From an uncultured Granulosicoccus sp. (GTDB taxonomy: Bacteria > Pseudomonadota > Gammaproteobacteria > Granulosicoccales > Granulosicoccaceae), in assembly GCA_938003775.1 (NCBI GenBank), contig CALKXZ010000014.1, positions 1 through 56,406 of the forward strand: a stretch of 56,406 nucleotides of DNA, in the 5' to 3' direction. The notes under the pieces were generated by a model. It was not told the origin of the DNA, searched no databases, and was given only the letters and a program-made list of their open reading frames with translations. The position numbers and the translations under genes were made by a program. Shown piece after piece: positions 5,463 to 29,434 of this stretch (position 1 is the stretch's first letter; each line of letters starts with the position of its first letter).

Positions 5463-6560
5463 ATGTCACGACGTCATTTTTTGAAAACAGGTGCGGGTGC
5501 AGCAAGTGCTGCGGCTGTTGCCGGTACCGGACTCATTACATCCGCTCCTGCTATTTCACAAGGGCGTGAAAAGCTTGTGATGGTAACTTCTTGGGGCCGA
5601 GGCCTGGCTGGTGTATTCGATGCTGCACAGCATTTTGCTGATTCGATCAATACCATGTCAGATGGCACGCTGGAAATTGAGATTAAGGCACAGGGAGAGC
5701 TGGTCTCCGGTCTACCAGCGGTTTTTGATGCAGTGACCACCGGTCAGGCAGATATGTATCACGCTGCAGACTATTACTACGTTGGACAGCACCCAGCCTT
5801 CGCGTTTTTTACGGCCATTCCGTTCGGCATGACACCCATTGAATTAAATAATTGGTATTACCACATGGGTGGTCATGAACTGCACCTCGAATTAGGGGAA
5901 GAGTTCGGTCTAGTGTCGTTTCTAGCCGGCAACACGGGGGCACAGGCAGGTGGTTGGTTCCGTAAGGAAATCAACAGTGCGGATGATTTCAAAGGTTTGA
6001 AATTCAGGATGCCGGGTCTGGGCGGCAAGGCGCTGGGTAAGTTGGGCGCATCGGTGCAAACTATTGCAGGTTCTGAGGTGTATCAGGCCCTGGCCTCTGG
6101 CGCCATAGACGGCACTGAATGGATCGGCCCGTGGGCGGATGAGAAAGCGGGTTTTCAGGAAATTACCAAAATCTTTTACACCTCTGGTTTTCATGAGCCA
6201 GGTGCAGGCCTGACGCTGGCAACCAATGCCGATCGCTGGGGCACGTTGAAGCCACATCATCAAAAGATGATTGAGGTCGCTTCAGGTCATGCAAACTCCT
6301 GGAATTTGCATCAATATCTGGCCAACAATTCGTTGGCGCTGGATCGTTTGGTTGCAGGCGGTGTTAAGACTCTGGAATTTCCAGACTCTGTGTGGGATGC
6401 TTTCGGTACAGCATCGCAAGAGGTTATAGATGAAAACATGGACGACGAGTTTTTTGCCAAGGTGCATGCCTCAGTAATGGAGAGCATGAAACTGTCTTCG
6501 CGCTGGACTGCGCTGTCTGACGGTGCCTATACAGCTCAACGCGATCGCGTACTGGGCTAA
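5463..6560 (+). CDS. dctP: TRAP transporter substrate-binding protein (DctP/TakP-like), Tat-exported
   Basis: SRRHFLK Tat motif; GNTGAQAGGWF, LKFRMPGLGG, GAIDGTEWIGP. Confidence 0.92.
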   Translation: MSRRHFLKTGAGAASAAAVAGTGLITSAPAISQGREKLVMVTSWGRGLAGVFDAAQHFADSINTMSDGTLEIEIKAQGELVSGLPAVFDAVTTGQADMYHAADYYYVGQHPAFAFFTAIPFGMTPIELNNWYYHMGGHELHLELGEEFGLVSFLAGNTGAQAGGWFRKEINSADDFKGLKFRMPGLGGKALGKLGASVQTIAGSEVYQALASGAIDGTEWIGPWADEKAGFQEITKIFYTSGFHEPGAGLTLATNADRWGTLKPHHQKMIEVASGHANSWNLHQYLANNSLALDRLVAGGVKTLEFPDSVWDAFGTASQEVIDENMDDEFFAKVHASVMESMKLSSRWTALSDGAYTAQRDRVLG

Positions 6561-6602
6561 TCGTTTTTAGCTCCAGTAGTATGGAGTAGCCCAGCGATGT
6601 TG

Positions 6603-6664
6603 GCTGCAACGCAGGTACTGGTATGTTGTTACATACTAGGTATCTCGTTGCAGCTTTTTGTTTT
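6603..6664 (+). terminator. Long hairpin followed by a U-tract after dctP (partial terminator or stabiliser)
   Basis: GCTGCAACG (6603-6611) pairs with CGTTGCAGC (6646-6654), inner GTATG/CATAC stem, followed by TTTTTGTTTT. Confidence 0.55.
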
Positions 6665-6694
6665 AATCGTCAGGAATTTTTTACGGAGGCGGGC

Positions 6695-7810
6695 TTGGCT
6701 TCATTTTTAGTGGTACTTACCGGATTGGGCAACGGCTTTGTTGATCTGGTCATGTTGCCGTGGACTCTCTGGCAGTGGTTTGAAATGGATGTGCTCAAAG
6801 AGCGCATGGTTGCGCTGGCGCTTGCCGGTAAATCCGTTGAATTTCTGTACATGATGCTCAGCCTGGTATTGCTGCTAGTCGTACTGAGTTTAATCAGTCG
6901 TCGCTTTTTACGCCGGACCGTACTGAGCCTGGAGGCTTTTAATCGGAAAATTGGTCAAGCTGCATCGTGGTTTGTACTGTTGCTGATGTTTCAGCAAGTA
7001 ATGATCATTGTGATGGGGCAGGTCTTTCGCGGTAATGAGTTACTGTTTTCGCCGTTCGGCATGCAATTGTCCAATGCCGAGTTACAGTGGCTATCGGGCC
7101 AACTGAAGTTCTACAACGCTATTCTGATTGCCTTTGCATCAGCCTACACATTTATAGAAGGTGGTCATGTGCGGGTGGATCTGGTTTACGGCAATTTGGG
7201 TTATCGGGCCAAACGTTTTATTGATTTACTGGGTTCGATTGTCTTCATGCTCCCTGCAACAATTTTAATGTGGTGGTTCGCCTGGCCATTAGCCACTAAT
7301 GCTGTGTTCAGCCAACGGCCAATGAACATCTTCTCGGACAAAGCCAGTTGGCGAGGAATGAAGTTTGAATCGTCGGGCACCGCCGAATTCACTTGGGTTT
7401 GGGCTTTTAAAGTGCTGATCCTTGTGTTTGCTGCGCTGCTGTTTATTCAGGCAGTGGCCTTTATGCTGAGAAATTTATGGGCTCTGTTATCCAAAGATGC
7501 AGATGTTGAATCTCATCCACTGGATACAGGTGCACCTGAACCGCTTGAACCTGATATTAATCTAGGTCTACCCAAAGCATTGTCGGGTACGACGCTGGCA
7601 ACGGCGCCTGCAGCGACACAGCAGGGGAGTAAACAAGAGCGCGTGCGCGTCCCCGTAGACACCAGTGCTCGACAGGCCAAGGAAGCGCTGGCTTCCGCTG
7701 GCATTAGTGCTCGGCAGAGAGCACGCAAAGCAACACGCTCAACGGCGAATTTAGCCACTCCATCATTAGCACCGGCGCGTAGTCCCACTACGTCCAAAGG
7801 AGATCTATAA
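6695..7810 (+). CDS. dctQ: TRAP transporter small permease (DctQ) with terminal extensions
   Basis: AYTFIEGGHVRVDLVY motif and TM segments. TTG start at 6695 follows GGAGG; the ORF track start is 6623. Confidence 0.85.
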   Translation: MASFLVVLTGLGNGFVDLVMLPWTLWQWFEMDVLKERMVALALAGKSVEFLYMMLSLVLLLVVLSLISRRFLRRTVLSLEAFNRKIGQAASWFVLLLMFQQVMIIVMGQVFRGNELLFSPFGMQLSNAELQWLSGQLKFYNAILIAFASAYTFIEGGHVRVDLVYGNLGYRAKRFIDLLGSIVFMLPATILMWWFAWPLATNAVFSQRPMNIFSDKASWRGMKFESSGTAEFTWVWAFKVLILVFAALLFIQAVAFMLRNLWALLSKDADVESHPLDTGAPEPLEPDINLGLPKALSGTTLATAPAATQQGSKQERVRVPVDTSARQAKEALASAGISARQRARKATRSTANLATPSLAPARSPTTSKGDL

Positions 7811-7811
7811 G

Positions 7812-9914
7812 ATGTTTTTTGGACTGGACGGCGTGGAAATCTCGCTGATCATTACGTTTACCTGTTTGTTCATTGGCATCCTTTCAGGTTTTCCAGTGGC
7901 GTTTGCAATTGCCGGCTCGGCCATAGTGAGTTTCGGCATCATTGCCGTTATGAGTCATGCTGGCGTGCTCTACACATTGGTTGAACAAGGCGGTTCGACG
8001 GAGGTTGTCCCGGTGCTGCCACAGGGCTGGGATGGTGCGTTTTTGTCGACTATTTCAACTTGGTCCAGTGGTATTTTTTCACGTGCATTTGGCGGCAATG
8101 TGGAAACTTTGCTGGCGGTACCGTTGTTTGTACTTATGGGTATAGCGCTTGAGCGATCTCGAATTGCCGAGGATCTGCTCACAACAATGGCACGCACCTT
8201 TGGCAGCTTGCCTGGTGGTTTGGCCATATCTGTTGTGCTTGTTGGAACGCTGCTCGCGGCTAGTACTGGTGTTGTCGGTGCAACAGTGGTTACCATGGGA
8301 TTGATCGCGTTACCGACCATGTTGCGTGCCGGTTATTCCAAGTCTTTAGCCACGGGTGTTATCGCAACATCGGGTACGTTGGGTCAGATTATTCCACCCT
8401 CCATTGTGATCGTTCTGCTTGGCTCTATTGTCGGTGACATGTATTCAATTGGCCAAGAAAGCCGTGCAAAGGAACTTGGTGTCACCGTGATGGACATGCT
8501 CGGAGAGCCCGCGGTGTTGTCCACGGGTACGCTGTTTAAGGCCGCTTTTATTCCAGGTGTTGTTTTGGCCTTGCTGTATGCAGCCTATGCCTTGTTCTAT
8601 GCGTTGCTCAAACCTAATGCAGCACCTCCTATTAAGCATGAGATAACCGAACCGGGTAAGTTTGATGTTGCCGCTCACTACGGCCATCGCACCGGCTTGC
8701 TGGTCTTTCTGACTATGGCACCGCTGTTTGCGCTAATAGCGGGTTGGGTTTATTTAACCGGAATGGGCATCGTCAGTGCACAAGATCTCCCGACTGACTC
8801 AGGATTAATTTCACACGGCACTATGGCGTTGGTCGTTGGTGCTACGTTTGTGTTATTGCTAAGCCTGGTGTTGCAACCCCAATTCGCTAATTTTCCAGTA
8901 CTTATCGGTCTATTGGGCGTGATTGCTTATGTACTGGTCGATCTCTATGTACTCGATGCTGCGGCATCACCAGGGCGTCGTTTTTTGTCTTATGCACTGC
9001 CTACGCTGCTGATATTAATAGGCTTGCGTGCGGCGCTGTCTCGGCTGGGTAATATTGATGTGCTGCGCGTGGTATCCCCGCCCGTTATATTAATCGTGTC
9101 TGTGCTTGGTTCGATTCTCGGTGGCGTAACAAGCCCCACGCCAGCGGCTGCACTGGGCGCCGCCGGAGCAATTATGTTGGCCGCTAGCCGGCTGTCTCAA
9201 GGTGAAAAAGGCGCTACCAGGATCGTGTTGTGGGCATCGTTTTCCATCGTGATACTCCTTTTAATGCGGGGCAATTTCGATTTACGTATGACGTTAAGCG
9301 AGATCAGCTTGGAGAACCAGATTGCCGTGTGGGTCACCATCGTTGCTTACCATGTGGCAGTGTTTGGATTGTTGTTCGCCTGTTTTGTGATGTTCAATAA
9401 GCGCGTCATGTCACCGGTAGTCAGAGAGACCACCAAAGTCACTAGCATGGTGTTCATGATCTTAATAGCCTCCTTGTTTCTGAGCCTATCGATACGTGCC
9501 TATGGCGGGGAGCACTATATTCAAGAAGTCCTGCGCAGTATCGATGATCCGCGAACATTGTTGCTGGTGGTTATGGCCGTGTTATTTGTGCTTGGGTTTG
9601 TGCTGGATTTTATCGAGATCATATTTATCGTGATCCCAATTGTGGGGCCAGTTATCTATGCCACTGATCCGGCGCTGATGCCGCCCGAATGGATTACCAT
9701 CCTGATTGCGGTAAACCTGCAGACATCCTTTATCACACCGCCGTTCGGCTTTGCATTGTTCTACTTGCGCGGTGTAGCGCCGCCGTCAGTCACTACTGGG
9801 GATATCTATCGGGGAATATGGCCATTTGTGTTCATTCAAATTTTTGGCCTGATTATTTTGTGGAATTTTCCTCAAATCACCACGTTCCTGCCCGATCTTC
9901 TGCCGGCTAATTGA
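7812..9914 (+). CDS. dctM: TRAP transporter large permease (DctM) with internal membrane insertion
   Basis: LLAVPLFVLMG, AASTGVVGATV, SGTLGQIIPPS, NLQTSFITPPFGFALFYLRG. Confidence 0.92.
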   Translation: MFFGLDGVEISLIITFTCLFIGILSGFPVAFAIAGSAIVSFGIIAVMSHAGVLYTLVEQGGSTEVVPVLPQGWDGAFLSTISTWSSGIFSRAFGGNVETLLAVPLFVLMGIALERSRIAEDLLTTMARTFGSLPGGLAISVVLVGTLLAASTGVVGATVVTMGLIALPTMLRAGYSKSLATGVIATSGTLGQIIPPSIVIVLLGSIVGDMYSIGQESRAKELGVTVMDMLGEPAVLSTGTLFKAAFIPGVVLALLYAAYALFYALLKPNAAPPIKHEITEPGKFDVAAHYGHRTGLLVFLTMAPLFALIAGWVYLTGMGIVSAQDLPTDSGLISHGTMALVVGATFVLLLSLVLQPQFANFPVLIGLLGVIAYVLVDLYVLDAAASPGRRFLSYALPTLLILIGLRAALSRLGNIDVLRVVSPPVILIVSVLGSILGGVTSPTPAAALGAAGAIMLAASRLSQGEKGATRIVLWASFSIVILLLMRGNFDLRMTLSEISLENQIAVWVTIVAYHVAVFGLLFACFVMFNKRVMSPVVRETTKVTSMVFMILIASLFLSLSIRAYGGEHYIQEVLRSIDDPRTLLLVVMAVLFVLGFVLDFIEIIFIVIPIVGPVIYATDPALMPPEWITILIAVNLQTSFITPPFGFALFYLRGVAPPSVTTGDIYRGIWPFVFIQIFGLIILWNFPQITTFLPDLLPAN

Positions 9915-10033: not shown

Positions 10034-13000
10034 CTACCCCGCTTTTCGCATCACTTCCATATTGGCCAGGCGGTTTGCTGCACGTCGATCACGTTCTATA
10101 TTGCCACTTGCTGTGAAGCGGGGCTGAGATCGACGATCACCCAATCTGTCTTTCATTTCACGTCGCTCTATGCCTTGCTGATAACGAAAGTTCATACGTG
10201 ACGTGAGCTCGTTGACAGCACCGGTATTGTGAAGGTTCGTAATGTCATTGTCAGAGTGATCAGACAGAGACTCAGTCGCGTGTGCCGGTACTTTTCGTAG
10301 CGCTGAGTTGGAACCACGACGCTCCTCCAGAATTTCTATCGATCCGGACAGTGACATACGGACCACGTCACCGCTGTTGAGTCGCTGACAGACACCCGAT
10401 ACGCCGACAATGGCTGGTAAGTCGTATTCACGCGCGACAATGGCTGCATGGCTCAGCCAACCACCAACTTCAGTGACAATACCTCGGGCCTGAGAGAACA
10501 GTGGATACCAGGTTGGGTCAGTCATACGGGCAATGAGTATTTCGCCTTCCTTAAACGTATGAATTTGGTCTATATCGGTGATTACCCGAACCTTACCTAC
10601 CACTTCCTGCTCACCGGCCACGCGCTTGCCGGAGAGTTCAGTTTGAACGACGGCATCAGGCCGAGTACCGGTCAGCATATCAATGCGTTCCAGATCGCTG
10701 ATCGATAGTGATGCAGGTAATTGCAATGATTTCCAGGCAATGGATGCCTCGAAACGTTGATCAGCGGTAGTGATCAGCTGTTGCCTGACTTGTGGGTCAG
10801 CCAGTTGTATGGCTTCATTAATGTGTAACTGGAAAATGCGACCGTTAAGCTGGCATTTTTCATCAATAGCCAGCAACAGTTTGCGAATTTGTGCCAGTTC
10901 TATGAGACAGTAATGTTTGGCCTCTTCCTTGAGTCGCATAAAGTTACGAGCACGCTGCACAGTAATACTGAGTACTTTGCTGCTCGGTAACTCACACTGC
11001 TCATTAGAGTCGGTAGCAACCTCTTCGTGTTTGACTGCTTGCGATGAGCGTTCGATATACTGCCGAACCAGCTGCAAATCTTCATTGAACCGAGGTTCGG
11101 CCAGCTCATAGTCCAATGGTGCCCGGTGCCCGAATGTCATTAGAAATTCTTCGATCGCTTCGTGAGACACCGTGTTTCTATTCAACAGTGACATGGCACG
11201 GCTGACGACGGTCTCTTCGTGATCATTCAAGAAGCGTGTTGGCTCGAGTTTGGCAGCGGCGAGTTTATCCAGCGCGCTTTTCATGTGGAAGTCTGCGCTG
11301 ATATTGATTCGCTCGGCTGCACAGTACGTGTCCTGAACAAATCGATTAACCCAGGCTTCTAGTAAATCGGTAGCAGCCTCTAAGCTCAGTCGTTCCATGG
11401 CGATGGCATTACGTTCAATCATTTCTGACTGAAACTGAGGCAAAAACTCAGCTCTAAATTGTTCTTCAGTTGCTTCGGCGTTGCGCGCCAGTCGGAAAGA
11501 GGCCAGTGCACCTGGTCCCTTACCCAGACGGCGACGCTCTTCTTGCTTGTTGACATACGTCCAGCCAAATACTGAATTGATATAGGGCATGGATCTGAAG
11601 TGGACATTATAAGGAATCCCAAGCTCATGACAGGCTAGATCGGTGCTGCCACCAGCTGCCCACAGACGTTCCATGAAGTCGCTGCTGAAAGGGGTCGGTC
11701 TTGGCAATAGTTCAGAGAGTTCATTCTGAACATATACCGGCTCTTGAGCATTTATTTTCTCGCTACTACGGAACCGCTTGCGTTGTCCTAACAGATTGTT
11801 GAGTAACTTGCGTCGTTCACTCTCGGCTAAATTCTTCAAAGAACTCCCAACACTGATTGAACGTGTGATGTCGCGTGCTTGGAGTAAGTAGAATGTTCCT
11901 TTGGCATAGGCCCACTCGATATCCTGTGGGTGCTCGAACAGGGCTTCCAATTCTCTTCCCAGTGCCAGCAGTGGCGCTACATCAATAGGCGGGCGAACCG
12001 CATTGCTAGACTCCTCTTCCAAGAGTTCTCCGGTTAATTTACCGTAGGCGAAAGAATCCGGTGTGACGTTGCCGCTGACCAGGTCCTCGCCCAGCCCGGT
12101 GACCATTTCAACCATCATGGCGCCGGTTGTGGCCGGGTGTTCAGTGAACATGACACCGGCGTATTCTGCCGGTACCATTTTCTGTACGACCACTCCACCT
12201 TGATCGAATTCGACGGTAGCGCCGGGTTGTTGTGCGTTTTGAGTGTAAGCGGCGGAGCGTTCGGAACACAGTGAGTCGTACACCTCACGAACAGCGGGCT
12301 CCAGAGCATCACGGGTTACGTTGAGTATGGATTCGTACACACCTGCGAAACTACTGTCCTCTCCATCCTCATTAGCCCCAGAGCTGCGCACCGCCACTTT
12401 TTGTGTTTTAAGACTTTTCCAAAGCTTGTCCAGCTCTTTTGCCTGAAGCTTGTTCCACAATGGCTTGTCAGGTCGTGTCCGGGTGCGGTTGGTAATTTCG
12501 CTGGTAAATACAAACCCATTGGGCACGTTGTATCCTGCTTCGATGAGTTGACCCAGACGCGCCGCCTTCTTACCCGTTGATTCTGGCAACAGATGCGCCT
12601 GTGATAATGGAATGAGTCCGGTATCTTCTATGGTGTTGGTCTTGTCTGCACCGGCTGAATCCCATTCCATCAAGTTTCCGATGAGGCGGAATAGCGCGCT
12701 CTGCGCTATCAGGAACACCATGCTAATACTCAAGTACAAATTCACAGCCGCACCCAGTGTCTGTAGCAGCCACATAAGAGCAACACCGCCGAGTGCATAT
12801 AATAATTTTTTTCGCAGAGTCTTCGCCGGGCTCTGTGACGCCAGCACGCCAACAAAAAGAGCGCTTGCCACAATCGGCATGATGAGCAGCGGATCAGCAG
12901 CCGATGCAGAATCGAACCACAAGAAAGACTGATCCCAGCCAGCACTGGCTTTGCTCACGGCTGAATAGAACAGCAGCATCAGAGACAACTGAAACAGGCT

Positions 13001-14470
13001 GGCCAACATATTAATGACTGGTCTGATTTTGTATCGCTTGTACAATTGCATGGTGGCATCGGTCAAAGCTCGCGGATGATCAGACAATTCATCTTTGAGA
13101 TCAGCCAAACGACCGGATAGGGATTTTTGCACCCGAGTGTCTCTTTCCGCTTTCAACGAAAGTGGCAATAGAACAAATCGAGTTAGCAAAACTATACCGA
13201 GCAGTGCGAACACATAGTGACCGCTAATATCCACCAGCTTATTGAGTAGATTTTGCATCGGTGTCACAACATAACTTGCCAGAGTTAGTTGCTCCTGGTT
13301 CTGCTTCCAAGCCGATACATGCGCCCGTTCAGTGTTCTTAGGTACATAGTATTCATTGGGAACGGTATAACGACCGCGAAAGTCCAGCCCAGCACGCTCC
13401 AGGCGCAGACCAATTAACTGCGAATAGAAGCAGCTTCGCTTGTCGTAACATGCGGCGATGTAGGGTACGTCTTCCAAAGAACTGATTCGATCAGCTAGGG
13501 CTGCACTACTTAGTGCCCGCATGGTTATATTATGGGCGCCTGGAAGATGATCTTTGACAAAGTCATTAGGATAGCGTACGTCCAGAAATTGTGCACCCGA
13601 TTCACTAACGAGCTTATTAACATCGGGAGTGTCTAGCAGTACGTCCTTGTTTTTGAAGTCGGGTAGCTGTCGTAAATCAGCTATGGATAAGTCAACCTTA
13701 GAGGATAGAGGGCGTGATTCGGTCATCCATTTCTCATAGCCACCCATCATGAAATTACATTCTTTTCCTTGCTTAGTGAGTTCACCACACAATTCTGAAC
13801 TGCGATTGCCTGAATAGCATAAAAGCAGTGTTTTGGTATTGTCAGTGAACAATGATGAGCGCGCTAGGACATCTGGGTAACGCAGGTGTGCAGCACCTTC
13901 TATGGCACCAACTTCAAATTCTTCGTTCTCTCGCACATCGATGATGTTGACTGGCACATCGTCTTCTAGCCACTGGGCCAAGGTTTGTGTAGAAATACCT
14001 TGGGGGTGAGTGAGCTGTTCACTAAATGACAAGGTCTTGATACTGGTATCACCAACAGTTTGACCGTTCTCAACTGATTTTCGAACAAGGTTGGTGTGCA
14101 GTCGCTGATTTTTGGCATCCAGTGAGCTGGTGTACTGCAGCATGTTGGCTGACAATGAACCGAGTAAACATACACCGGCTAATGCCAATATGATTTTTCC
14201 GCCGGCTGAGCTTTGTTTGCTTTTTCGGCTGATTTTCTTTTTAGCAGATACAGCAAACCCGCCGAAAACCACGCTGAGTAAGCCCAGTAGTTGAGCAACA
14301 CTTGCCGATAAATTGATCACAAGATCTGGCGAAGGAATTGCTAAAACCTGAGTGCTGAACATCATTAACATGACTGCACTTAGCCAACAGCCATACCTTG
14401 CCATTGGTCGCTGCATGCAACGAGTCCTTTTGCGTTTTATATTTTTTATAATATTCATGGCGACAGTCAA
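10034..14470 (-). CDS. Fusion protein: N-terminal signal/TM + 2 rhodanese domains + YidC/Oxa1 insertase core + PEP/pyruvate-binding ATP-grasp + Rph/PigC-like central domain + phosphohistidine swivel domain
   Basis: Rhodanese: IIDVRENEEF..GAIEGA..LLCYSGNRS..GGYEKW and FLDVRYP..HLPGAHN..ACYDKRS. YidC: LLTRFVLLPL, MQLYKRYKIRP, FLWFDSASAADP, AVNLYLSISMVFLIAQ. PEP-utiliser: GKKAARLG, VAVRSSGANED..SFAG, GLGEDLVSG, PQDIEWA, LLQAR, TEVGGWLSHAAIVARE. Exact start uncertain. Confidence 0.85.
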   Translation of the reverse strand: MTVAMNIIKNIKRKRTRCMQRPMARYGCWLSAVMLMMFSTQVLAIPSPDLVINLSASVAQLLGLLSVVFGGFAVSAKKKISRKSKQSSAGGKIILALAGVCLLGSLSANMLQYTSSLDAKNQRLHTNLVRKSVENGQTVGDTSIKTLSFSEQLTHPQGISTQTLAQWLEDDVPVNIIDVRENEEFEVGAIEGAAHLRYPDVLARSSLFTDNTKTLLLCYSGNRSSELCGELTKQGKECNFMMGGYEKWMTESRPLSSKVDLSIADLRQLPDFKNKDVLLDTPDVNKLVSESGAQFLDVRYPNDFVKDHLPGAHNITMRALSSAALADRISSLEDVPYIAACYDKRSCFYSQLIGLRLERAGLDFRGRYTVPNEYYVPKNTERAHVSAWKQNQEQLTLASYVVTPMQNLLNKLVDISGHYVFALLGIVLLTRFVLLPLSLKAERDTRVQKSLSGRLADLKDELSDHPRALTDATMQLYKRYKIRPVINMLASLFQLSLMLLFYSAVSKASAGWDQSFLWFDSASAADPLLIMPIVASALFVGVLASQSPAKTLRKKLLYALGGVALMWLLQTLGAAVNLYLSISMVFLIAQSALFRLIGNLMEWDSAGADKTNTIEDTGLIPLSQAHLLPESTGKKAARLGQLIEAGYNVPNGFVFTSEITNRTRTRPDKPLWNKLQAKELDKLWKSLKTQKVAVRSSGANEDGEDSSFAGVYESILNVTRDALEPAVREVYDSLCSERSAAYTQNAQQPGATVEFDQGGVVVQKMVPAEYAGVMFTEHPATTGAMMVEMVTGLGEDLVSGNVTPDSFAYGKLTGELLEEESSNAVRPPIDVAPLLALGRELEALFEHPQDIEWAYAKGTFYLLQARDITRSISVGSSLKNLAESERRKLLNNLLGQRKRFRSSEKINAQEPVYVQNELSELLPRPTPFSSDFMERLWAAGGSTDLACHELGIPYNVHFRSMPYINSVFGWTYVNKQEERRRLGKGPGALASFRLARNAEATEEQFRAEFLPQFQSEMIERNAIAMERLSLEAATDLLEAWVNRFVQDTYCAAERINISADFHMKSALDKLAAAKLEPTRFLNDHEETVVSRAMSLLNRNTVSHEAIEEFLMTFGHRAPLDYELAEPRFNEDLQLVRQYIERSSQAVKHEEVATDSNEQCELPSSKVLSITVQRARNFMRLKEEAKHYCLIELAQIRKLLLAIDEKCQLNGRIFQLHINEAIQLADPQVRQQLITTADQRFEASIAWKSLQLPASLSISDLERIDMLTGTRPDAVVQTELSGKRVAGEQEVVGKVRVITDIDQIHTFKEGEILIARMTDPTWYPLFSQARGIVTEVGGWLSHAAIVAREYDLPAIVGVSGVCQRLNSGDVVRMSLSGSIEILEERRGSNSALRKVPAHATESLSDHSDNDITNLHNTGAVNELTSRMNFRYQQGIERREMKDRLGDRRSQPRFTASGNIERDRRAANRLANMEVMRKAG

Positions 14471-14471
14471 A

Positions 14472-16778
14472 TTACGCAGCCTTATCTAGCGTATTGGTAT
14501 CTTCATCCAATAGCTCAGATATACGGGTAGACAACCAGAAAACTATCTTTTCTTCCAACGCGTGTTCTTCAAAAGGTTTGGAAAGATAGTCATCCATGCC
14601 GGCTGAAATACACTTTTCTGCATCGCCAGTCATGGCGTTGGCAGTGAGTGCAATGATAGGTAGATGTTGCCCCTGTTTTGCATCGGTTTGTTCACGTTTT
14701 CTAAGTGCCTGAGTAGCGGCGTAACCATCTAGCACAGGCATCTGGCAATCCATTAGTACCAGGTCAAAATCGTCATTGGCAATTCTGTCAAGCCCTTCTT
14801 GACCGTTGTCGGCAACATCAGCGTGAAAGCCTATTTTTTCAAGCATACCGATGGCCACTTCCTGATTCACGGCATTATCCTCGACCACCAGAATATTGAT
14901 ACTTGAGTAAGCACGGCGTCGAGCCAGTTTGGATTCGTCTTCTATTTGGGTTTCTTGGACTTTTTCATGCACCGCGCGTTCGAGTATTTGTCCAAGCTCG
15001 GAGCGTTTAACAGGCTTGGTAATTTGCGCAGCTATGCGTGGATTCTTGTGCGGGTAGAGCTCTGGCACTTGTTCTGTAACATAGGCCATGGGTACTAATT
15101 TAATAGGGTCGAATACCGGATCAGCATCGACACAGCGTGCAAACACTTCGCCAGGCATATCACTGAGTTGTGCGCTGAACAGAATGATGTCGGGCATTTC
15201 GTTGTTGATAGCAGCATCACGGATAACCTCCAGAGCCTCAGCGCCTGTGGTGACGGTGGTAGTGGCCAGAGACAACTCTGCAAGCAGGGTTTGCATCAAC
15301 TCACAAGCAGAATCATTGTTTTCAACCAACATCACGCGTCTTGAACTGATGGTTTGTAACTGTGCTTTTTCCGTTAACGTTTTACCCGAAACTGGCAGCG
15401 TTAACTCGAACCAGAACTCGCTGCCTTGACCAACAGTTGAGGAAACACCGATCTTGCCACCCATGCCCTCTATTAAGCGCCGACTAATAGCCAGACCCAG
15501 TCCGGTGCCTCCATACTTGCGTGTGGTTGAACCGTCCGCCTGCTCAAAAGACTGAAATACTGATTGCAGGGCTGATTCTTCAATGCCGACGCCGGTGTCT
15601 GAAATACTAAACAGCAGGCGGGATTCTGTATCGTTGTGGCTTAGCTCTTTGACGCTTACACGAACTTCGCCTTCGGTGGTGAACTTGACAGCGTTGCCCA
15701 TCAGGTTGGTTAACACCTGACGTATTCGTGTAGGGTCACCCTTAACGTTCTGTCTGACGCTGCCTGAAACATGGCACAGTAATTCTAGGTGTTTACTGTT
15801 AGCTTGTTCAGACAGTGCGATAGCGCACCCTTCAACGACCTCTTCGAGATTGAAGTCGATTGTTTCGAACTCTAGCTTGCCCGCTTCAACCTTCGAGAAA
15901 TCCAGAATATCGTTAATCAGTGTGAGTAGTGATTTCCCAGAGGTAGTGGCGATCTTCACTTGCTCTGTTTGTTCTGGGTCAAGCGATGTGCCCTGTAACA
16001 GCGAAAGCATACCCAGTACACCGTTCATAGGTGTTCTAAGCTCGTGCGACATATTGGCCAGGAATTCAGACTTTGAACGAGAGGCTTCCTCGAGCTCCTG
16101 CTCCTTCTGTTTGCGTAACTCCAGAATATTACCTAATTCGTTAACCGAACCACCCAGGTCCATTAATTCGCGTGCAGCAACAATATCCAGTTCGCCGCTG
16201 GCCTTGTTGGCTTGTAGGAGTAATAGATGGTTGTGAATTAGTCTTATGGGCGTCACAACCAGTCCGTTAATCAGTCCTACCACGATCATGGCTAGCACCA
16301 GTGATATACCCGATGCATACAGATAGATTTTGATTGCGTAGGATTTTATTTCAGCCTGTTGTCGTTGCACATTCCAGGTCACGTCTATCCGACCGAATGA
16401 CTCTCCTTCGAGCAAAACATCGTGTGAAAAATCTAAACACAGCTCTGGCGCAATGGGGGAATCCTTGTTCCATTGAGTCAGTATTTCGTCATTCTCGTTA
16501 TAAATACTGACCGCTTCTACATCCGGGTCGTTGTCGACCAATTGCTTAATAGTAGTATCCAGAACTGGTCGGTCTTCACTGAGGATGGCGTCTAGAGATG
16601 TGGCCGATAACATCGAGACTAGCTTTTGTGTCTGGTCTCGAAAGTTTCGTTCAAAGGCAAGGTTTTCATTGAATCGTACGAACTCTGCAGCCGAAAGCCC
16701 CACAGCCAGAATGGTGCATCCCATGACGAGGATAATCTGTTGGCGTAGGGGCCAATTTTTAAATAGTCTTGCAAACAC
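14472..16778 (-). CDS. Membrane hybrid sensor histidine kinase (periplasmic domain, HAMP-like, HisKA, HATPase, pseudo-REC, REC)
   Basis: [49 protein letters not shown]. Confidence 0.93.
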
Positions 16779-16840: not shown

Positions 16841-18025
16841 CTATTGCGCTGGTTGAGTCGTTGAGGAGTGACCAACCTCATCATCAGGAATCGTCAGGTT
16901 TATCGTGAATGTGTTAGGACTATTGGGATTGTTTGCTTCAAACAAGCTGCGTGGCAATGTAATGTTGACAGTGACTAACCGATTGTTAGTTTGATGGACG
17001 TGATTCATGTTTACCGGTTGCTCTGACATCGAGGATGCGTGTGATGTTGTGCTGGTCGCCATAGGCGCCTGTTCAGCTGCTTGCATGAGAGGCTCGTGTA
17101 CGATGTTTGATGTGGCTTTAGCTTCTGTGACTTCTGTTTTTTCGTGCTCAGCGAAAAAAGCCTGATTGTTTTCCATCGCTTTACGGATGACTTTGTAGTC
17201 ATCATCATTTCCCTCTAGAAAGCCATCAATTTTCAATGTGGCCAGAGTCTTTTTGCTTTTGACTTGTAATAATGATTCGCGAAGTGCTTCTAAGACGTCT
17301 GGCTCCAGGCCAGATCGAGCGATCCAAGGCTTGGTTACATTCGGAAAGCGAACCAGTTCACGTATGTTCTCGCCAGCGTCCACCAGTTTTACAAAGGTTT
17401 TCTCGTTCAAAGCACCGGCATCAAAGCTCCCAGCTCCAACAGCTGTGCCTACCTTGTCGTGGCGTCCCAAATAGTCGTAGCGGCTAAGATCGCCTGCGCG
17501 GATGCCAGCTTGTTCCAATTCGAGCTGGGACAAGAAGCGGCCGATAGTTGAACCTTCGTCGCCAAAAGCAAACGACTTACCTCGGAGTTCGCCAATTGAC
17601 TGAATCGGGCTGTCCTTACGCACGGCGATGATGCCGTAGAACACTTTCGAGTTTTTGACGTTTTCAACAGACAGTATGCTGATGTCCTTGTTCATACGTT
17701 TGGCCTCAATGTAGGAGGCCGGTCCGAATTTAGAAAAGTCTACGCGTCCGTTGATCAAATGAGAGATGCCCTGGTCGTAGTCTTTGGCAATCTGCATACG
17801 GATATCGACGTCACGTCCCAGTTTCGCCGACATGCTCGCTTCGAGCTCTTTGAGAATCGGTCGGTATACCTTCACCATGGCCGAAGGTTTGTTAGAACTA
17901 TAAACACCAAAGTTAAGTCTCACGGTGCCTTCAGCGTGTACATGAGAGCTCAGTGTTGAAACCAGTGAGGCGGTTAGTACACCCGCCAGAATAAGGCCAT
18001 TTCGGGAATTGGAAAGCAGTGACAT
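16841..18025 (-). CDS. PhnD/phosphate-phosphonate-type periplasmic binding protein with C-terminal extension
   Basis: Signal peptide; LNFGVY, DYDQGISHLINGRVDFSKFGPASY, LRGKSFAFGDEGSTIG, YLGRHDKVGTAVGAGSFDAGA. Confidence 0.85.
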   Translation of the reverse strand: MSLLSNSRNGLILAGVLTASLVSTLSSHVHAEGTVRLNFGVYSSNKPSAMVKVYRPILKELEASMSAKLGRDVDIRMQIAKDYDQGISHLINGRVDFSKFGPASYIEAKRMNKDISILSVENVKNSKVFYGIIAVRKDSPIQSIGELRGKSFAFGDEGSTIGRFLSQLELEQAGIRAGDLSRYDYLGRHDKVGTAVGAGSFDAGALNEKTFVKLVDAGENIRELVRFPNVTKPWIARSGLEPDVLEALRESLLQVKSKKTLATLKIDGFLEGNDDDYKVIRKAMENNQAFFAEHEKTEVTEAKATSNIVHEPLMQAAEQAPMATSTTSHASSMSEQPVNMNHVHQTNNRLVTVNITLPRSLFEANNPNSPNTFTINLTIPDDEVGHSSTTQPAQ

Positions 18026-18413: not shown

Positions 18414-21287
18414 TTGACTGTGGACCAAGCACAAGATCCTTCATTGTTTGAGACGACCGATACGAGTCGTGTTAAGACAGGAGCTGGGCACGCGACCGCG
18501 ACGTTGGGTGTCGCAATTTGGTTTATGTTTATCGTGAGCGTGTTTTTAGGTGTACTCATTGCGCTAGTCAGCTACAGGCTGCAGCTACTACCCTGGCACG
18601 TACAATGGTTAGATAACAATGCACTGACGACTGAAGTACTGCATGCTCTGCACAGTTTGAGAATTGAGGCTGCATTGCTGGGTGTGGTCGCTTTGAATTT
18701 TATGTTATTGCTGTTGCGATCTCGGCAACGATCAACACCAGAGCTAACAGCTTTACGGATGGCTCAATCGGGTAAAAATCCGGATAATTTTGAAGACTGG
18801 GATCACCCGTCTGAGGCGTTAGATGAGAGTTCAGTTGGATCAATCCACGCGATGGATCAAACCCTCGAGTGTCATGATCTAGACCTGGAAATCGCGGAGA
18901 CGACTAGAACACTGGATGCTGTACCTCAGTTACCTATGGATAGCACAGCGCCGCAAGGGATTCTCACTCCGATCCGGTCAGCAAATGCAGACGCACAGTT
19001 GCAGATTGCCACCAGTGAGCTGACAAGATTGCGGCGTGAGCTCGTTACCTGCCGGCAGCAGCTGGAGACATCTAATCAAGCAAAGTCTCAATTTTTGGCC
19101 AACATGAGCCACGAATTGCGCACTCCCATGAACGGTATTATGGGTATGACCGATCTGCTGCTTGGGGGTAACTTAGCGGCCCGTGAAGAACGATTTGTGA
19201 CATCAATCGCATCGTCTTCCAGTACTTTGCTGGCTATCATCAACGATCTATTGGATTTCTCCAAAATCGAGTCTGGCATTTTGCAGCTTGAACATGGTCG
19301 ATTCTCAATACGCGATTGCGTAGAGGATGTCTGTTCGTCACTGGCAGGCTCTGCCCATTCTAAAGACATTGAATTGATCTGTTACGTTGATGAAAATGTG
19401 CCCGCGCAAATGGATGGAGACCCGAGCCGGGTTCGTCAGATTTTGCATAATTTAATAACCAATGCGATTGCCTTCACTGATGAAGGTGAGGTTGTCGTCA
19501 GGTTGACGCGCAAATCCGAGACAAAAAGCAATTCAGTGTACCAATGCGATGTGCAGGATACCGGAGTCGGCATATCGCCTGAAATGCAGGTAAAACTGTT
19601 TGAAGCCTTTACGCAGGCTGACCTGTCCAATACTCGCGGACACGGTGGTTTGGGTATGGGTCTGGCGATATCAAAAGAGCTAGTCTCTATGATGAACGGC
19701 GAGATAAGTTTTCGCAGTCGACTGGGTGAGGGGACACGATTCAGCTTTACAATGGAGCTGGAGAACGTTTCTGGTGATCAGAGCAGCTCCTCGCGACGTC
19801 GTTCAATGCATGGTGCTCGGGTTTTGGTGGTTGATGATAACGAGACTAACCGCACCATTTTATTCCATCAGTTGTCCAATTGGGGATTGCAGGTAGAAAC
19901 TGTCGAGAGTGGAAAGCTGGCGCTACAATCGTTACGCCTGGCACACGATAGCAATCAAGGTTTTGACGTAATGATTCTAGATCTGCATATGCCAGAGATG
20001 GATGGGATACAGTTAGCTAAGGCCATCCAGGCTGAGCCGGATTTCAGACATATTCAATCGGTTATGCTGACATCGGCCATACTGCAACTCGATGGTATGG
20101 AATTGCGCAAGCTGGGTATTTATAAATACGTCAGCAAGCCTGCTCGTCAATCGGTGTTGCACGATTCTCTATCCTCGTTAATGCCCAATGCCTGCGGTAC
20201 CCGCTCGGTTGCCCAGAACACGTTTGTCCATCCTGCATCGGTCAATGCGCAGGTACTACTGGTTGAAGACAATCCGGTTAATCAGGACGTAGCTGTGGGT
20301 ATGCTCGAACAATTAGGTTGTGAAGTTACGCTGGCCACGGATGGCAGAGATGCGGTGGAGATGGGTGCTACGAAAAAATACGATATCGTATTAATGGATT
20401 GCCAAATGCCGACCATGGATGGTTATGAGGCGACGCGTCGAATTAAATCGGATGGTGCACTTAATGCGCCAACGCCGGTGGTTGCTTTGACAGCCAACGC
20501 AATGGATGGGGATCGGGAAAAGTGTTTGTTAGCGGGCATGGATGACTATGTGTCTAAGCCGATAAGGACACAAGTGCTTTCGCACATGTTGGAAAAATGG
20601 GTAGGGCGAGCCCAGGAGACATTTGATCCTAACGCACACAGTCAGACACCTGCGCTGCTACCCACGGGAGACCGATCTGATGACCTGTCAAGCAGTGGTG
20701 TTGTTGTCGACTACGATATTGGTTGCCAGGAAGAGCCGGCTATTGGTAATGATGTGGATTCAGAGAATGAGTCACAGACAGTGCAGACGGCAGATAGACC
20801 CACCGAGTCATTGGATAAAACTATGGAGGCAGTTCAGCTGGACATTATGTCTGACACAATCAAAATTAAAAGCAGTGCAGAAGCCCAAGCAGCAGACGAT
20901 GCGGATAACGCTCCAGACGGCGTGACAGAAACTGGTTCTATCATAAACATCAGGGCAATAAAAGTTATTCGCAGTTTGCAGCGACCCGGTAAAGATGATT
21001 TGCTGGCCAAGGTAATGGGCGTCTATTTTGACAAGACACCTGAGCTCATTGAGCAAATGCACACGGCGTTGGATGATGGCGACTATAGCGCTATATCCGC
21101 CTGCGCTCATAGTCTGAAGTCCAGTAGCGCGTATCTGGGTGCTGATAGTGTGTCAGCCAAATGCCGACTGATAGAGGCATCTGTAAATGAGGGTGAACAC
21201 GATAAAATTAGCGATTTGGTAAACGAGATTGAAAGCGAATACGAGCTTGTCTCATCTGAGTTAACAACAATGATGAACGCTGCTTGA
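18414..21287 (+). CDS. Hybrid sensor histidine kinase with two REC domains and Hpt (BarA/RpfC-like architecture)
   Basis: Two TMs; [15 protein letters not shown]; GGLGMGLAI; VMILDLHMP and IVLMDCQMP receivers; AHSLKSSS Hpt. Confidence 0.93.
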
Positions 21288-26737: not shown

Positions 26738-27208
26738 ATGCAGAAATCCCTGCACATTGACCCGGGCAAGTGCACCGGATGTCTGCAGTGTGAATCGGCG
26801 TGCTCATTGATAAAGGAAGAATCGGTTAATCCGTCAAAATCCCGTATCAAGGTATTCACGTTTCACGACGAGGGACGCTTTGTGCCCTACACCTGCACCC
26901 AATGCGATGAAGCCTGGTGCATGCAGGCCTGTCCGGTGGACGCTATTGTGCTGAATCCACTTAACGGCTCAAAAGACGTACTGGACGACATCTGCGTCGG
27001 TTGTAAGGTGTGTACGATTGCCTGCCCGTTTGGCACCATCAACTACAACTCATCGACTGGCAAGGTCATCAAATGCGATCTGTGCGGTGGTGATCCCGAA
27101 TGCGTCAAGGCCTGCCCGACGCAGGCTCTGAGCTACATTGATGCCAATGCAACCGGTCTGGACAAGATGCGGGCGTGGGCTTCTAAAACCGACAACGCAG
27201 GCGCTTAA
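26738..27208 (+). CDS. aorA: 4Fe-4S dicluster polyferredoxin subunit of aldehyde oxidoreductase (AorA-like)
   Basis: CTGCLQCESAC, CTQCDEAWCMQACP, CVGCKVCTIACP, CDLCGGDPECVKACP. Confidence 0.88.
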   Translation: MQKSLHIDPGKCTGCLQCESACSLIKEESVNPSKSRIKVFTFHDEGRFVPYTCTQCDEAWCMQACPVDAIVLNPLNGSKDVLDDICVGCKVCTIACPFGTINYNSSTGKVIKCDLCGGDPECVKACPTQALSYIDANATGLDKMRAWASKTDNAGA

Positions 27209-27222
27209 GGAGACAACAAATT

Positions 27223-29079
27223 ATGAGTTGGACTAAAAAAGTACTGCGCGTCAACATGAGCACAGGCAACATCAGTGAAGAACCACTGAATATGCACTGG
27301 GCACATGATTATCTGGGTCAGCGAGGGCTGGCTACGCGTTATTTGGTCGATGAAATTGAGCCAGATTGCGATGCATTGGGCCCCGATAACAAGCTGATAA
27401 TGACCACGGGTCCGCTCACGGGCACTATCGCATCAACCGGTGGTCGATATTCGGCTGTCTGTAAAAGTCCCCTAACAGGCACCGTAGCCTGTTCTAACTC
27501 AGGCGGCTTTTTCGGTGCTGAGCTGAAATTTGCTGGCTGGGACATGATCATCCTGGAAGGTAAGGCAGCAAGCCCGATGTATTTGAACATTGAGGACGAC
27601 GTGGCAACACTGATCCCGGCCGATGATCTGTGGGGCCAGTCAGTTTGGGCGGCGGATCACCTGCTACGACAAAAACATCAGGATCCTCAAGTAAGAATTG
27701 CCTGTGTAGGCCGCTCGGCCGAACAGGGTTGCTTGTATTCGGCCATCGTTAATGATTTACACCGGGCTGCCGGTCGCTCTGGTGTGGGTACTGTTATGGC
27801 ATCCAAAAACCTGAAAGCGGTGGTTGTGCGTGGTACCAAAGGGTTGGGCAATATTGCTGATCCTAAACGTTTCATGCAAACAGTCAGAGATGGCAAGAAG
27901 GTGCTGGCTGACAATGCTGTCACCGGTGAGGGCCTGCCCGCCTATGGCACGCAAGTACTTATGAACGTGATTAACGAGGTTGGTGCACTGCCCACCCGTA
28001 ATATGCGTGAGACACAGTTTGAAGGTGCCTCCGATGTGGGTGGCGAAGCTATGCATGTACCGCGCAAATCAGACGGAAAGCCAAACCTGACCACTAACGC
28101 TGCGTGCTTCTCCTGCACCATCGCATGTGCGCGTATTTCCACCATTGATCGCACGCATTTCTCGGTCAAGGACAAGCCAGAATATTGGATTAACTCCGGC
28201 GGTCTGGAGTACGAGGCCGCATGGGCACTGGGTCCGGATACCGGTGTCGATGATATCGACGCACTGACCTATGTAAATTTCTTGTGCAATGAGGACGGTA
28301 TGGACCCCATTTCGTTCGGTTCTACCGTGGCTGCAGCTATGGAACTGTATGAAACCGGCGCAATAACCAGCGAACAGACTGGCGGTGTAGAGCTGAAATT
28401 TGGTTCGGCCGAAGCGCTGTGCTGGGCTGCAGAGGTGACTGCTAAGGGCGAAGGCTTTGGCGTAGACCTGGGCTTAGGTTCCAAGCGGCTTTGCGAGAAG
28501 TACGGTAAACCAGAATTCTCCATGACGGTTAAAGGTCAGGAATTCCCAGCCTACGATCCACGTGGCATACAGGGGATGGGTCTGGCATATGCAACGTCTA
28601 ACCGCGGTGCCTGCCATCTGCGCGGGTATACCGTTGCATCAGAAATTTTAGGTATTCCTGAGAAGACTGATCCACTCGAGTCTGGCGGTAAAGCAGGGCT
28701 GGTAAAGGCTTTTCAGGATGCAACTGCAGCGGTTGATTCTGCAGGACTCTGTGTTTTCACCACCTTTGCCTGGACCATGGACGACATTGCACCGCAAGTC
28801 GATGCAGCGTGTGAAGGCGACTGGTCAACCGAACGTATGATGGAAGTTGGCGAGCGCATCTGGAACCTTGAAAGAGACTTCAATCAGAAGGCGGGTGTTA
28901 CCGGTGCACACGACACATTGCCGGAGCGACTGCTCAAGGAGGCTTCTGCTTCCGGTCCTGCTAAGGGGCGAGTCAATGAGTTGGATCAGATGCTGCCGGA
29001 GTACTACCAGCTGCGTGGCTACAGTGCTGATGGTTCCATGACTGACGAGACTCGTCAGAAATGGGCACTACCCAGTTGA
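27223..29079 (+). CDS. aorB: Aldehyde ferredoxin oxidoreductase, tungstopterin family catalytic subunit
   Basis: KSPLTG, AAGRSGVGTVMASKNLKA, CFSCTIAC, LEYEAAWALG, YDPRG, TSNRGACH, DTLPERLL. Confidence 0.93.
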   Translation: MSWTKKVLRVNMSTGNISEEPLNMHWAHDYLGQRGLATRYLVDEIEPDCDALGPDNKLIMTTGPLTGTIASTGGRYSAVCKSPLTGTVACSNSGGFFGAELKFAGWDMIILEGKAASPMYLNIEDDVATLIPADDLWGQSVWAADHLLRQKHQDPQVRIACVGRSAEQGCLYSAIVNDLHRAAGRSGVGTVMASKNLKAVVVRGTKGLGNIADPKRFMQTVRDGKKVLADNAVTGEGLPAYGTQVLMNVINEVGALPTRNMRETQFEGASDVGGEAMHVPRKSDGKPNLTTNAACFSCTIACARISTIDRTHFSVKDKPEYWINSGGLEYEAAWALGPDTGVDDIDALTYVNFLCNEDGMDPISFGSTVAAAMELYETGAITSEQTGGVELKFGSAEALCWAAEVTAKGEGFGVDLGLGSKRLCEKYGKPEFSMTVKGQEFPAYDPRGIQGMGLAYATSNRGACHLRGYTVASEILGIPEKTDPLESGGKAGLVKAFQDATAAVDSAGLCVFTTFAWTMDDIAPQVDAACEGDWSTERMMEVGERIWNLERDFNQKAGVTGAHDTLPERLLKEASASGPAKGRVNELDQMLPEYYQLRGYSADGSMTDETRQKWALPS

Positions 29080-29184
29080 TCGATCAAGTCTTAACGCATT
29101 AACCAGTCGTTGTAGATCAGTACCACGACACAGGGCGAACCGCAGGTCGACAGCGTTTGACGGGCGGACACGTTGGTCAATCAT

Positions 29185-29211
29185 CTCGGGCGCAGCTGGA
29201 CTGCGCCCGAG
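29185..29211. repeat. Perfect 11-bp-stem hairpin in the aorB-aorC spacer
   Basis: CTCGGGCGCAG-CTGGA-CTGCGCCCGAG. Confidence 0.6.
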
Positions 29212-29434
29212 TTGTCTGTGCACCAGACTATTCATCGTTTTCCGCTTTGACTGCGTCATCTTGATGGATCGAATGTGCAATGGCACGAGGACGCGATGCG
29301 ATGCCTGCTCAATCGCAATTTTGGATCAGACACCGATCATCTGCAGGTGGGTCGCAACCGGTTGCCGGAGGTGCAAGCGTCTGATAAATCGAGTAAGTTA
29401 GCATTCATGCAGAATCAATATTTAGGATAAAGCT

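Follow-up and report, generated by a model that had tools for sequence, protein, structure and literature searches.

What does a protein do that joins two rhodanese domains, a YidC/Oxa1 core and a dikinase of the rifampicin phosphotransferase (RPH) type in one chain? The question is raised by a gene in a stretch of 56,406 nucleotides (hereafter, the window) from an uncultured Granulosicoccus sp., namely contig CALKXZ010000014.1 of assembly GCA_938003775.1. We found that this fusion gene belongs to a conserved, apparently undescribed system with intact catalytic sites and a linked receptor. The architecture, the conserved catalytic residues, the separation from the housekeeping yidC, the gene linkage and the drift of the receptor pocket after enzyme loss were observed directly. 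An initial annotation had read the gene as a single 1478-aa chain of two rhodaneses, YidC and an Rph-type enzyme, and the open reading frame (ORF), Pfam matches and structural models all bear this out. Most of the functional information lies in features absent from that annotation: a binding protein and a sensor linked to the gene, homologues that carry PilZ, and the conserved N-terminal hairpin.

Architecture of the fusion protein

The chain runs from a signal peptide and an IPSPD membrane hairpin through two rhodaneses and a YidC core to the Rph-type dikinase. The plus-strand frame across 10034-14470 is full of stops. The true start may lie four codons later, at Met5, the position where close homologues (P0003, for example) begin. 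The features are as follows.

10034..14470, minus strand: fusion ORF, 1478 uninterrupted codons from a TTG start (possibly 1474 aa from Met5)
14339..14470, minus strand: predicted cleavable signal peptide, aa 1-44, with an AxA-type site (AxA-like site family-wide)
14243..14338, minus strand: mature N-terminus IPSPD and membrane helix 1 with conserved Gln60, predicted N-out (motif conservation)
14132..14197, minus strand: membrane helix 2, after a Lys-rich cytoplasmic loop (hydropathy and charge counts)
13706..13999, minus strand: rhodanese domain 1, Cys218 in a C-x-[SN]-G-N-R-S loop, predicted periplasmic (conservation; GlpE/MoeB-type matches)
13346..13663, minus strand: rhodanese domain 2, Cys341 in CYD[KR]R(S)(C)F, predicted periplasmic (conservation)
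12680..13273, minus strand: YidC/Oxa1 core with amphipathic helix, five membrane helices, cytoplasmic hairpin and groove Arg431 (Pfam, alignment, model)
11861..12619, minus strand: ATP-grasp domain; K635, R695, S714 and E852 match RPH K22, R117, T136 and E297
10661..11743, minus strand: Rph-type central acceptor domain; K1181, E1182 and K1185 match RPH R666, E667 and K670
10331..10639, minus strand: phosphohistidine swivel domain with His1341 (Pfam, conservation)
10037..10330, minus strand: Arg-rich C-terminal tail without a PilZ match; many homologues have a PilZ domain here

Pfam matched Rhodanese (in two stretches), 60KD_IMP (aa 419-593; 65.8 bits against a cut-off of 35), PPDK_N and PEP-utilizers (1306-1372); PF27448, named Rph_4th, is also present in many homologues. 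Two AlphaFold models were built, each from a 63-row alignment. The model of aa 44-620 (predicted local distance difference test (pLDDT) 80, predicted template modelling score (pTM) 0.56) matched single-domain rhodaneses (Z 16) and the Bacillus halodurans YidC structure 3wo7 (Z 17.1, 207 residues, root-mean-square deviation 4.6), and the model of aa 395-1390 (pLDDT 87, pTM 0.79) found its best match in Listeria RPH (E 6e-30). Complex prediction between YidC (aa 395-606) and the dikinase (aa 614-1384) gave a score of 0.02.

An assembly chimera can be rejected. All four Pfam domains are present in 115 of the 120 listed homologues, a four-domain homologue sits on a 7.78-Mb record of G. antarcticus, and a closed plasmid of Phaeobacter inhibens encodes the fusion. 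In addition, one contig of the probable source run covers 10461-15905 without joints, which is not independent evidence.

The same architecture, for which a search of other genomes had been advised, was found elsewhere. A search with aa 40-620 returned 457 homologous proteins; the source names include Granulosicoccus, other Gammaproteobacteria, Rhizobiales, Planctomycetota and Desulfobacterales, and a search of 50%-identity representatives widened the family to about 33% identity. A PilZ domain stands at the chain end in 21 of the 120 listed homologues. The fusion is also found in 82 plasmid records (Phaeobacter 59, Leisingera 17, Tritonibacter 3, Parasedimentitalea 2, Ruegeria 1). Its occurrence is patchy: 28 of 81 genomes of the family carry it, as do 2 of 399 other genomes of the class; a contig scan of genomes with one protein gave six close relatives only. 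Shorter matches, which were not inspected individually, look like fragments or broken gene calls, and stand-alone rhodanese-YidC or dikinase forms were therefore not accepted. Database names for this architecture are the names of its single parts, and the ESM Atlas holds two 'hypothetical protein' clusters with 60 and 142 members. No description was found in the open-access full-text literature, to which the search was confined, in agreement with the earlier statement that no characterised protein is known to have this architecture. The portions of PMC2706819 and PMC8890630 covered mention no such fusion, and those of PMC13598258, PMC5421792 and PMC4807370 contain nothing on the gene.

Conservation of the catalytic sites

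Conservation was assessed in 98 sequences with less than 55% mutual identity, the query included, drawn from 220 full-length sequences (median identity to the query, 38%). The residues named in the initial annotation (C218, C341, R431 and H1341) were all found at the positions claimed. Cys218 is kept in 97/98 sequences and Cys341 in 90/98; R345 is invariant (98/98), and C347 was seen only in company of C341. Rhodanese sulfurtransferases hold the active-site Cys in a six-residue loop. Domain 1 combines the rhodanese fold with such a loop (CxxGxR), and the loop of domain 2 (CYD[KR]R) is atypical in being one residue shorter. Rhodanese-fold phosphatases of the Cdc25 type and arsenate reductases have a CX5R loop; the loops here are CX4R and CX3R, and we rejected this assignment.

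The dikinase half shows the same degree of conservation at its active sites. RPH converts ATP to phosphohistidine, AMP and Pi and then transfers the phosphoryl group to its acceptor. The sites for both half-reactions are kept, as judged from the alignment: H1341 is present in 96/98 sequences, and the RPH triad for a small-molecule acceptor is kept in all 68 aligned loci. The domain order (ATP-grasp, acceptor domain, His swivel) and the catalytic positions of the ATP-grasp domain (with Ser or Thr at 714), of block 9 (with Lys for Arg at 1181) and of the His are those of an Rph-like dikinase, which upholds the earlier assignment to the Rph/PigC type instead of PpsA/PPDK. According to passages of PMC4844700 (Stogios et al.), the positions important in RPH are those kept in the fusion dikinase, and distant RPH homologues are called small-molecule dikinases with other substrates; YidC and rhodanese are not mentioned in the part of that paper covered.

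Closer assignments failed. The protein is not RPH or PigC/RedH proper, with scores below the NCBIfam cut-offs (Rph, 195 of 999 bits; PigC, 209 of 1300), nor does it belong to RPH clade A, which requires more than 42% identity to Listeria RPH (RPH-Lm), compared with about 20% here. Phosphoenolpyruvate (PEP) synthase and PPDK, in which the His domain is central and a pyruvate-binding barrel ends the chain, were rejected too (His domain C-terminal; 217 of 598 bits). Beyond the His domain, a PilZ-like motif follows in 20/98 of the diverse sequences. Two further proteins, P0143 and P0200, have GAF, PAS, or PilZ plus GAF domains in this place, and the ESM Atlas contains a cluster of Rph-type dikinases of about 1227 aa (79 members) with some 400 extra residues and no further Pfam domain shown.

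A YidC paralogue separate from the housekeeping copy

The initial annotation placed a YidC/Oxa1 core at aa ~400-597, and the 60KD_IMP match above cut-off together with the structural match to 3wo7 confirms it. The domain has the five-helix core with hairpin and the positively charged groove residue of the YidC/Oxa1 family. Arg431, aligned with E. coli YidC R366, is kept in 98/98 sequences, and the other groove residues equivalent to E. coli Q429, Y517 and Q527 are retained as well. The family also has charged motifs of its own at the groove mouth, among them K-A-[ED]-R-D below Arg431.

This domain is a paralogue, separate from the housekeeping yidC, and it has neither the mnmE neighbour, nor the P1 domain, nor the grouping with canonical YidC that mark the housekeeping protein. 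In a phylogenetic tree, 25 fusion YidC domains, fast-evolving and including several long branches, fall on one side of a 99/94 branch, and 15 canonical YidCs plus one other fusion fall on the other. Six of 18 genus genomes contain both the fusion and a canonical yidC, which adjoins mnmE in all six; the separate canonical gene that the annotation had asked for is thus present in relatives. The window's own assembly, which is 84.7% complete, gave no further 60KD_IMP match and no full-length mnmE match. Because the assembly is incomplete and also without full-length mnmE, the absence of a canonical yidC is probably an assembly gap, and we did not accept the fusion as the organism's sole YidC.

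N-terminus and membrane topology

In 217 of 221 full-length sequences, an AxA-type signal peptide directly precedes an [IF]P[STA]P[DE] mature N-terminus, which is followed by two extra membrane helices; the signal is invisible in some homologues whose gene calls start too late. The IPSPD-type motif is found in 96/98 diverse sequences and Gln60 in 92/96. The N-tail carries an invariant acidic residue, and the region around helix 1 has a pLDDT below 50 in the monomer model. A role of Ser47 as phosphoryl carrier is weakened by Ala at this position in 6/219 sequences. Hydropathy and the positive-inside rule predict that the rhodaneses lie outside and the dikinase inside, and thus support the topology proposed earlier as a prediction.

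A linked binding protein and sensor

The genes upstream of the fusion encode a putative receptor.

14472..16778, minus strand: hybrid sensor histidine kinase, the next gene upstream, with its stop codon right at the fusion start
16841..18025, minus strand: PhnD/PtxB-like periplasmic binding protein (Phosphonate-bd), with no ABC permease found in its vicinity
18414..21287, plus strand: divergent hybrid kinase (two receivers, Hpt domain) with conserved synteny in Granulosicoccaceae

The divergent kinase is likely to be the next relay step. In the Granulosicoccaceae loci examined, the fusion always stands beside signalling genes. The binding protein (at least 40% identity) is present in 47 of 81 fusion loci, many of which are short contigs, in 34 of the 49 loci of at least 12 kb, and still in half of those that belong to the most distant bin (11 of 22). 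The order of binding protein, sensor and fusion varies among loci. The output of the linked sensor also varies between hybrid kinase, simple kinase, GGDEF-EAL and methyl-accepting chemotaxis protein (MCP), and many linked sensors are GGDEF-EAL or MCP proteins that have no receiver match; the periplasmic sensor domain of the window's hybrid kinase is common to linked GGDEF-EAL proteins elsewhere. Because the outputs vary, the link is probably a ligand and not protein contact. No permease, biosynthetic, accessory or transport gene recurs across distant fusion loci, and this absence fits simple substrates.

Close orthologues of the binding protein (at least 60% identity) occur in 27 of the 81 family genomes, all of them fusion-bearing (27/28). 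None of the 53 fusion-less family genomes has one, and 15 of these carry binding-protein paralogues of 41-55% identity. Linkage and co-inheritance are thus those of a synthase-receptor circuit, with orphans on both sides. We then compared eleven predicted pocket residues, after merging copies more than 95% identical and excluding matches below 40% and seven duplicate loci. All eleven are intact in 40 of 41 linked copies (the remaining one has an alignment gap) and in 0 of 8 binding proteins at loci of enzyme loss. Among the loss loci, the fusion is gone from the syntenic locus in G088, and in five genomes of genus g16 it is reduced to a swivel domain of about 190 aa without the His, plus tail.

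L087:10496-11050, L088:10372-10941, L089:8574-9143, L090:3967-4518 and L098:10513-11082: stand-alone His-less PEP-utilizer swivel and conserved tail

The nearest structures to the binding protein are those of phosphite-binding PtxB. Its pocket retains the PtxB Tyr, Ser, Thr and His, and Lys replaces the Tyr of QYPW, which in PtxB caps the P-H of phosphite; this Lys suits an oxyanion with a polar fourth group. A PtxB/PhnD ABC uptake system was rejected, with no recurring permease among the neighbours and a loop that reads STIG and not STS[SG]. Arsenite sensors of the AioX type carry Cys. The window's binding protein has none, and arsenite sensing was rejected too.

Orphan binding proteins of the same subfamily at L091, L093, L094, L096, L109, L110 and L111 are paired with GGDEF, GGDEF-EAL or hybrid kinase sensors, and no fusion was found in these genomes. 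Elsewhere in the window, a TRAP transporter (DctP, DctQ, DctM; 5463-9914) converges on the fusion gene and is syntenic in Granulosicoccus only, and genes for a ferredoxin, an aldehyde:ferredoxin oxidoreductase and an FAD oxidoreductase lie at 26738-30712.

The orthologue in Phaeobacter inhibens

The P. inhibens orthologue PGA1_262p02280 is expressed (log counts per million 7.3), according to the parts of PMC12363192 covered. The supplement of that paper records seven transposon insertions in this gene and four in the linked kinase; because seven insertions were recovered, the fusion YidC is dispensable in this species. All three linked genes (PGA1_262p02260, 02270 and 02280 in strain DSM 17395) drop modestly in ctrA, cckA and chpT mutants (log2 -0.5 to -1.0; PMC12363192, same parts). 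PGA1_262p02280 is not among the motility genes in Table 1 of PMC12363192, and on this ground a motility role was rejected. A role in tropodithietic acid or roseobacticide production was likewise rejected, with the gene absent from the main-text passages of PMC4807370 (Table S1 not covered) and from those of PMC5421792. In N-acyl-homoserine lactone (AHL) mutants, passages of PMC5429656 report that the binding protein and kinase go up alongside motility genes (log2 +1.6 to +2.1, about 3-4-fold) and that the enzyme gene is unchanged (p 0.4-0.5). The swim-or-stick network thus includes the receptor, and the enzyme gene looks more constitutive than the receptor pair.

Proposed function and alternatives

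Our tentative answer, to which we give somewhat less than an even chance, is a two-sided membrane enzyme with YidC as conduit, which makes a small phosphorus or sulfur oxyanion read by the linked receptor in a synthase-receptor circuit. The catalytic halves, predicted to lie on opposite membrane faces, are united family-wide by a fold whose groove is able to move lipid head groups (passages of PMC11047089), and the most economical explanation is the exchange of a charged species between the two. The conduit suggested in the initial annotation would fit these data, and lipid scrambling by YidC in vitro and a second YidC-enzyme fusion beside a TagF-like gene, described below, also speak for the proposal. 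On this view, a small acceptor would receive a phosphoryl group from the dikinase, which is predicted to be cytoplasmic; the resulting charged intermediate would cross the inner membrane along the groove of YidC, and a sulfur or phosphoryl transfer would be completed by the cysteines of the rhodaneses, which are predicted to be periplasmic. The small oxyanion would then be released and detected by the neighbouring binding protein and sensor, with a phosphorelay or cyclic di-GMP (c-di-GMP) control of the swim-or-stick switch as output and, in some lineages, PilZ feedback on the enzyme. We infer in this scheme the topology, the conduit role, the outward direction and the identity of receptor ligand and enzyme product. 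The leading candidate for that product, though an improbable one in itself, would be thiophosphate or a phosphorothioate, by analogy with selenide,water dikinase and with ThiI and Uba4/MOCS3.

Several observations weigh against this proposal. The aa 44-620 model does not fix with confidence how the rhodaneses sit relative to YidC (pTM 0.56). A receptor that rises in AHL mutants while the enzyme stays flat is not what a classic autoinduction loop would give. In the loci examined, C218 (87/87 Cys) and C341 have no aligned stop, so that no change from Cys to selenocysteine was seen, and no sulfur-metabolism neighbours recur there. The loss group was assigned by hand, and its eight loci are probably two events (the genus-g16 clade and G088). 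In six of the eight loss-locus copies the third loop position has acquired the Ser found in PtxB, which could reflect new specificity instead of decay, and a neighbouring control gene has diverged at least as far overall as the loss-locus binding proteins. Moreover, the pocket is complete in 7 of the 12 orphans, most of these seven being from genomes in which no fusion was found, and in the class sample five of six binding-protein genomes have no fusion match and one of two fusion genomes has no binding-protein match.

The flow could instead be inward, which we consider unlikely: the binding protein would sense an environmental oxyanion such as thiosulfate, the rhodaneses would capture sulfur, the groove would pass it, and phosphorylation would trap it inside, as in group translocation or a sulfide,water dikinase. 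Passages of PMC5408782 describe Phosphonate-bd domains that serve as thiosulfate and tetrathionate sensors, the loop of rhodanese 1 is of the sulfurtransferase type, and orphan receptors with intact pockets exist. However, no gene that could use the product recurs, and the pocket changes after enzyme loss, although an environmental ligand would remain. Less probable still is envelope decoration. Here a lipid carrier at the inner leaflet would be phosphorylated by the dikinase and scrambled by YidC, and the rhodanese fold would hand the group on to a polymer of the cell surface, in line with what has been proposed for YidC-LtaS/TagF fusions. Envelope synthases are typically under PilZ control, and the YidC-sulfatase-type fusion described below sits in a phosphonate cluster. 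Furthermore, the RPH central domain binds a large hydrophobic acceptor (passages of PMC4844700), and YidC is a scramblase that acts on lipids in vitro and whose groove can move lipid head groups (passages of PMC11047089). Yet the recurring neighbours are receptors, and no glycan genes recur beside the fusion. The CX5R phosphatase pattern is in neither rhodanese loop.

We give slightly less credence again to a transmembrane transducer, in which the rhodaneses, through their sulfur or redox state, would govern both the phosphorylation of His1341 and the passing of the phosphoryl group to a protein, for example the receiver of the hybrid kinase. The constant presence of signalling genes in the Granulosicoccaceae loci, the PilZ, GAF and PAS domains appended in some homologues, and the His-less swivel and tail kept in the five genus-g16 genomes, a remnant that hints at protein contact, speak for it. 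However, the kept acceptor triad and the many GGDEF-EAL or MCP sensors without a receiver match make a transducer of this kind, the alternative to a conduit in the initial annotation, less likely. Finally, YidC might be a private insertase or chaperone that acts in cis on its own N-out hairpin or on the sensor, with the enzyme halves co-anchored and not chemically coupled. The retained groove residues and the acidic residue of the N-tail, which resembles YidC substrates, are consistent with this, and E. coli YidC binds the rhodanese-like YibN, though the YibN domain is cytosolic (passages of PMC11997395). We nevertheless find it very improbable; a housekeeping yidC is present, and a fusion fixed across 98 diverse sequences with charged groove-mouth motifs suggests a specialised role.

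The synthase-receptor proposal has a bolder form, which taken as a whole is unlikely: the YidC fold would be a substrate channel within a single-chain enzyme coupling cytoplasmic ATP to periplasmic sulfur chemistry, and the anion made, thiophosphate or a related phosphorus-sulfur compound, would be a new signal class, read by a dedicated PtxB-like receptor with control over c-di-GMP and phosphorelays in roseobacters and other marine bacteria that colonise surfaces. If true, this would be the first demonstrated case of an Oxa1-family domain moving a small-molecule intermediate within an enzyme and would provide a route for delivering ATP-derived chemistry to the periplasm, possibly defining a new signal in marine bacteria.

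Comparison with known systems

A different YidC-enzyme fusion was found at L072:6917-14350 (G022, contig C1), where a 750-aa protein with an N-terminal YidC lacking the groove Arg, sulfatase/LtaS-like by its Atlas neighbours, heads a phosphonate cluster. The cluster contains a PEP mutase, a thiamine pyrophosphate enzyme, cytidylyltransferases and a TagF-like gene, whose product begins with a signal peptide, a YLDPG motif and a membrane helix, and it adjoins mnmE and the canonical yidC. Because of this second fusion, we suggest that, on more than one occasion, a YidC fold was recruited to a place between a cytoplasmic donor and an outward transferase. The uncharacterised YidC-LtaS/sulfatase and YidC-TagF fusions resemble the rhodanese fusion in placing a YidC copy between a cytoplasmic phospho-donor and an outward transferase, and in a partner that starts with a signal peptide, a Pro motif and a membrane helix; they differ in that the example found, split over genes of a phosphonate cluster, is without the groove Arg. 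Homology between the IPSP[DE] motif and the YLDPG module was not detected and is doubtful.

With YidC/Oxa1 insertases (PDB 3wo7, 6al2) the fusion domain has in common the five-helix core, the cytoplasmic hairpin and the groove Arg, whereas it is a second copy without a P1 domain, dispensable in P. inhibens, and scores 74.3 against the TIGR03592 cut-off of 84.3. Its dikinase has the domain order and catalytic positions of RPH-Lm (PDB 5hv1, 5fbs), PigC and RedH. In contrast to RPH-Lm, to which identity is only about 20%, it has Lys at the R666 position, is membrane-anchored and is joined to YidC and rhodaneses. The binding protein and sensor are like the AioX, ArrX and ThsS/TtrS pairs, in which a Phosphonate-bd fold accompanies a sensor without a permease. 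The window's protein differs from PtxB in the Lys for the QYPW Tyr and an Ile for the third loop Ser, from arsenite sensors in the absence of Cys, and from known PhnD-fold sensor pairs in that the pair is linked to an enzyme.

The rhodaneses are like GlpE and the tandem rhodanese 6mxv in fold and, for domain 1, in the six-residue Cys loop, but the loop of domain 2 is one residue short, and both domains usually keep their Cys. ThiI and Uba4/MOCS3 are rhodanese-fused ATP-dependent thiolation enzymes, and they and MoeB/MoeZ pair a rhodanese with an ATP-dependent enzyme, as the fusion does. Unlike in those activating enzymes, the rhodanese and the ATP-dependent enzyme of the fusion are predicted to lie on opposite faces of the membrane.

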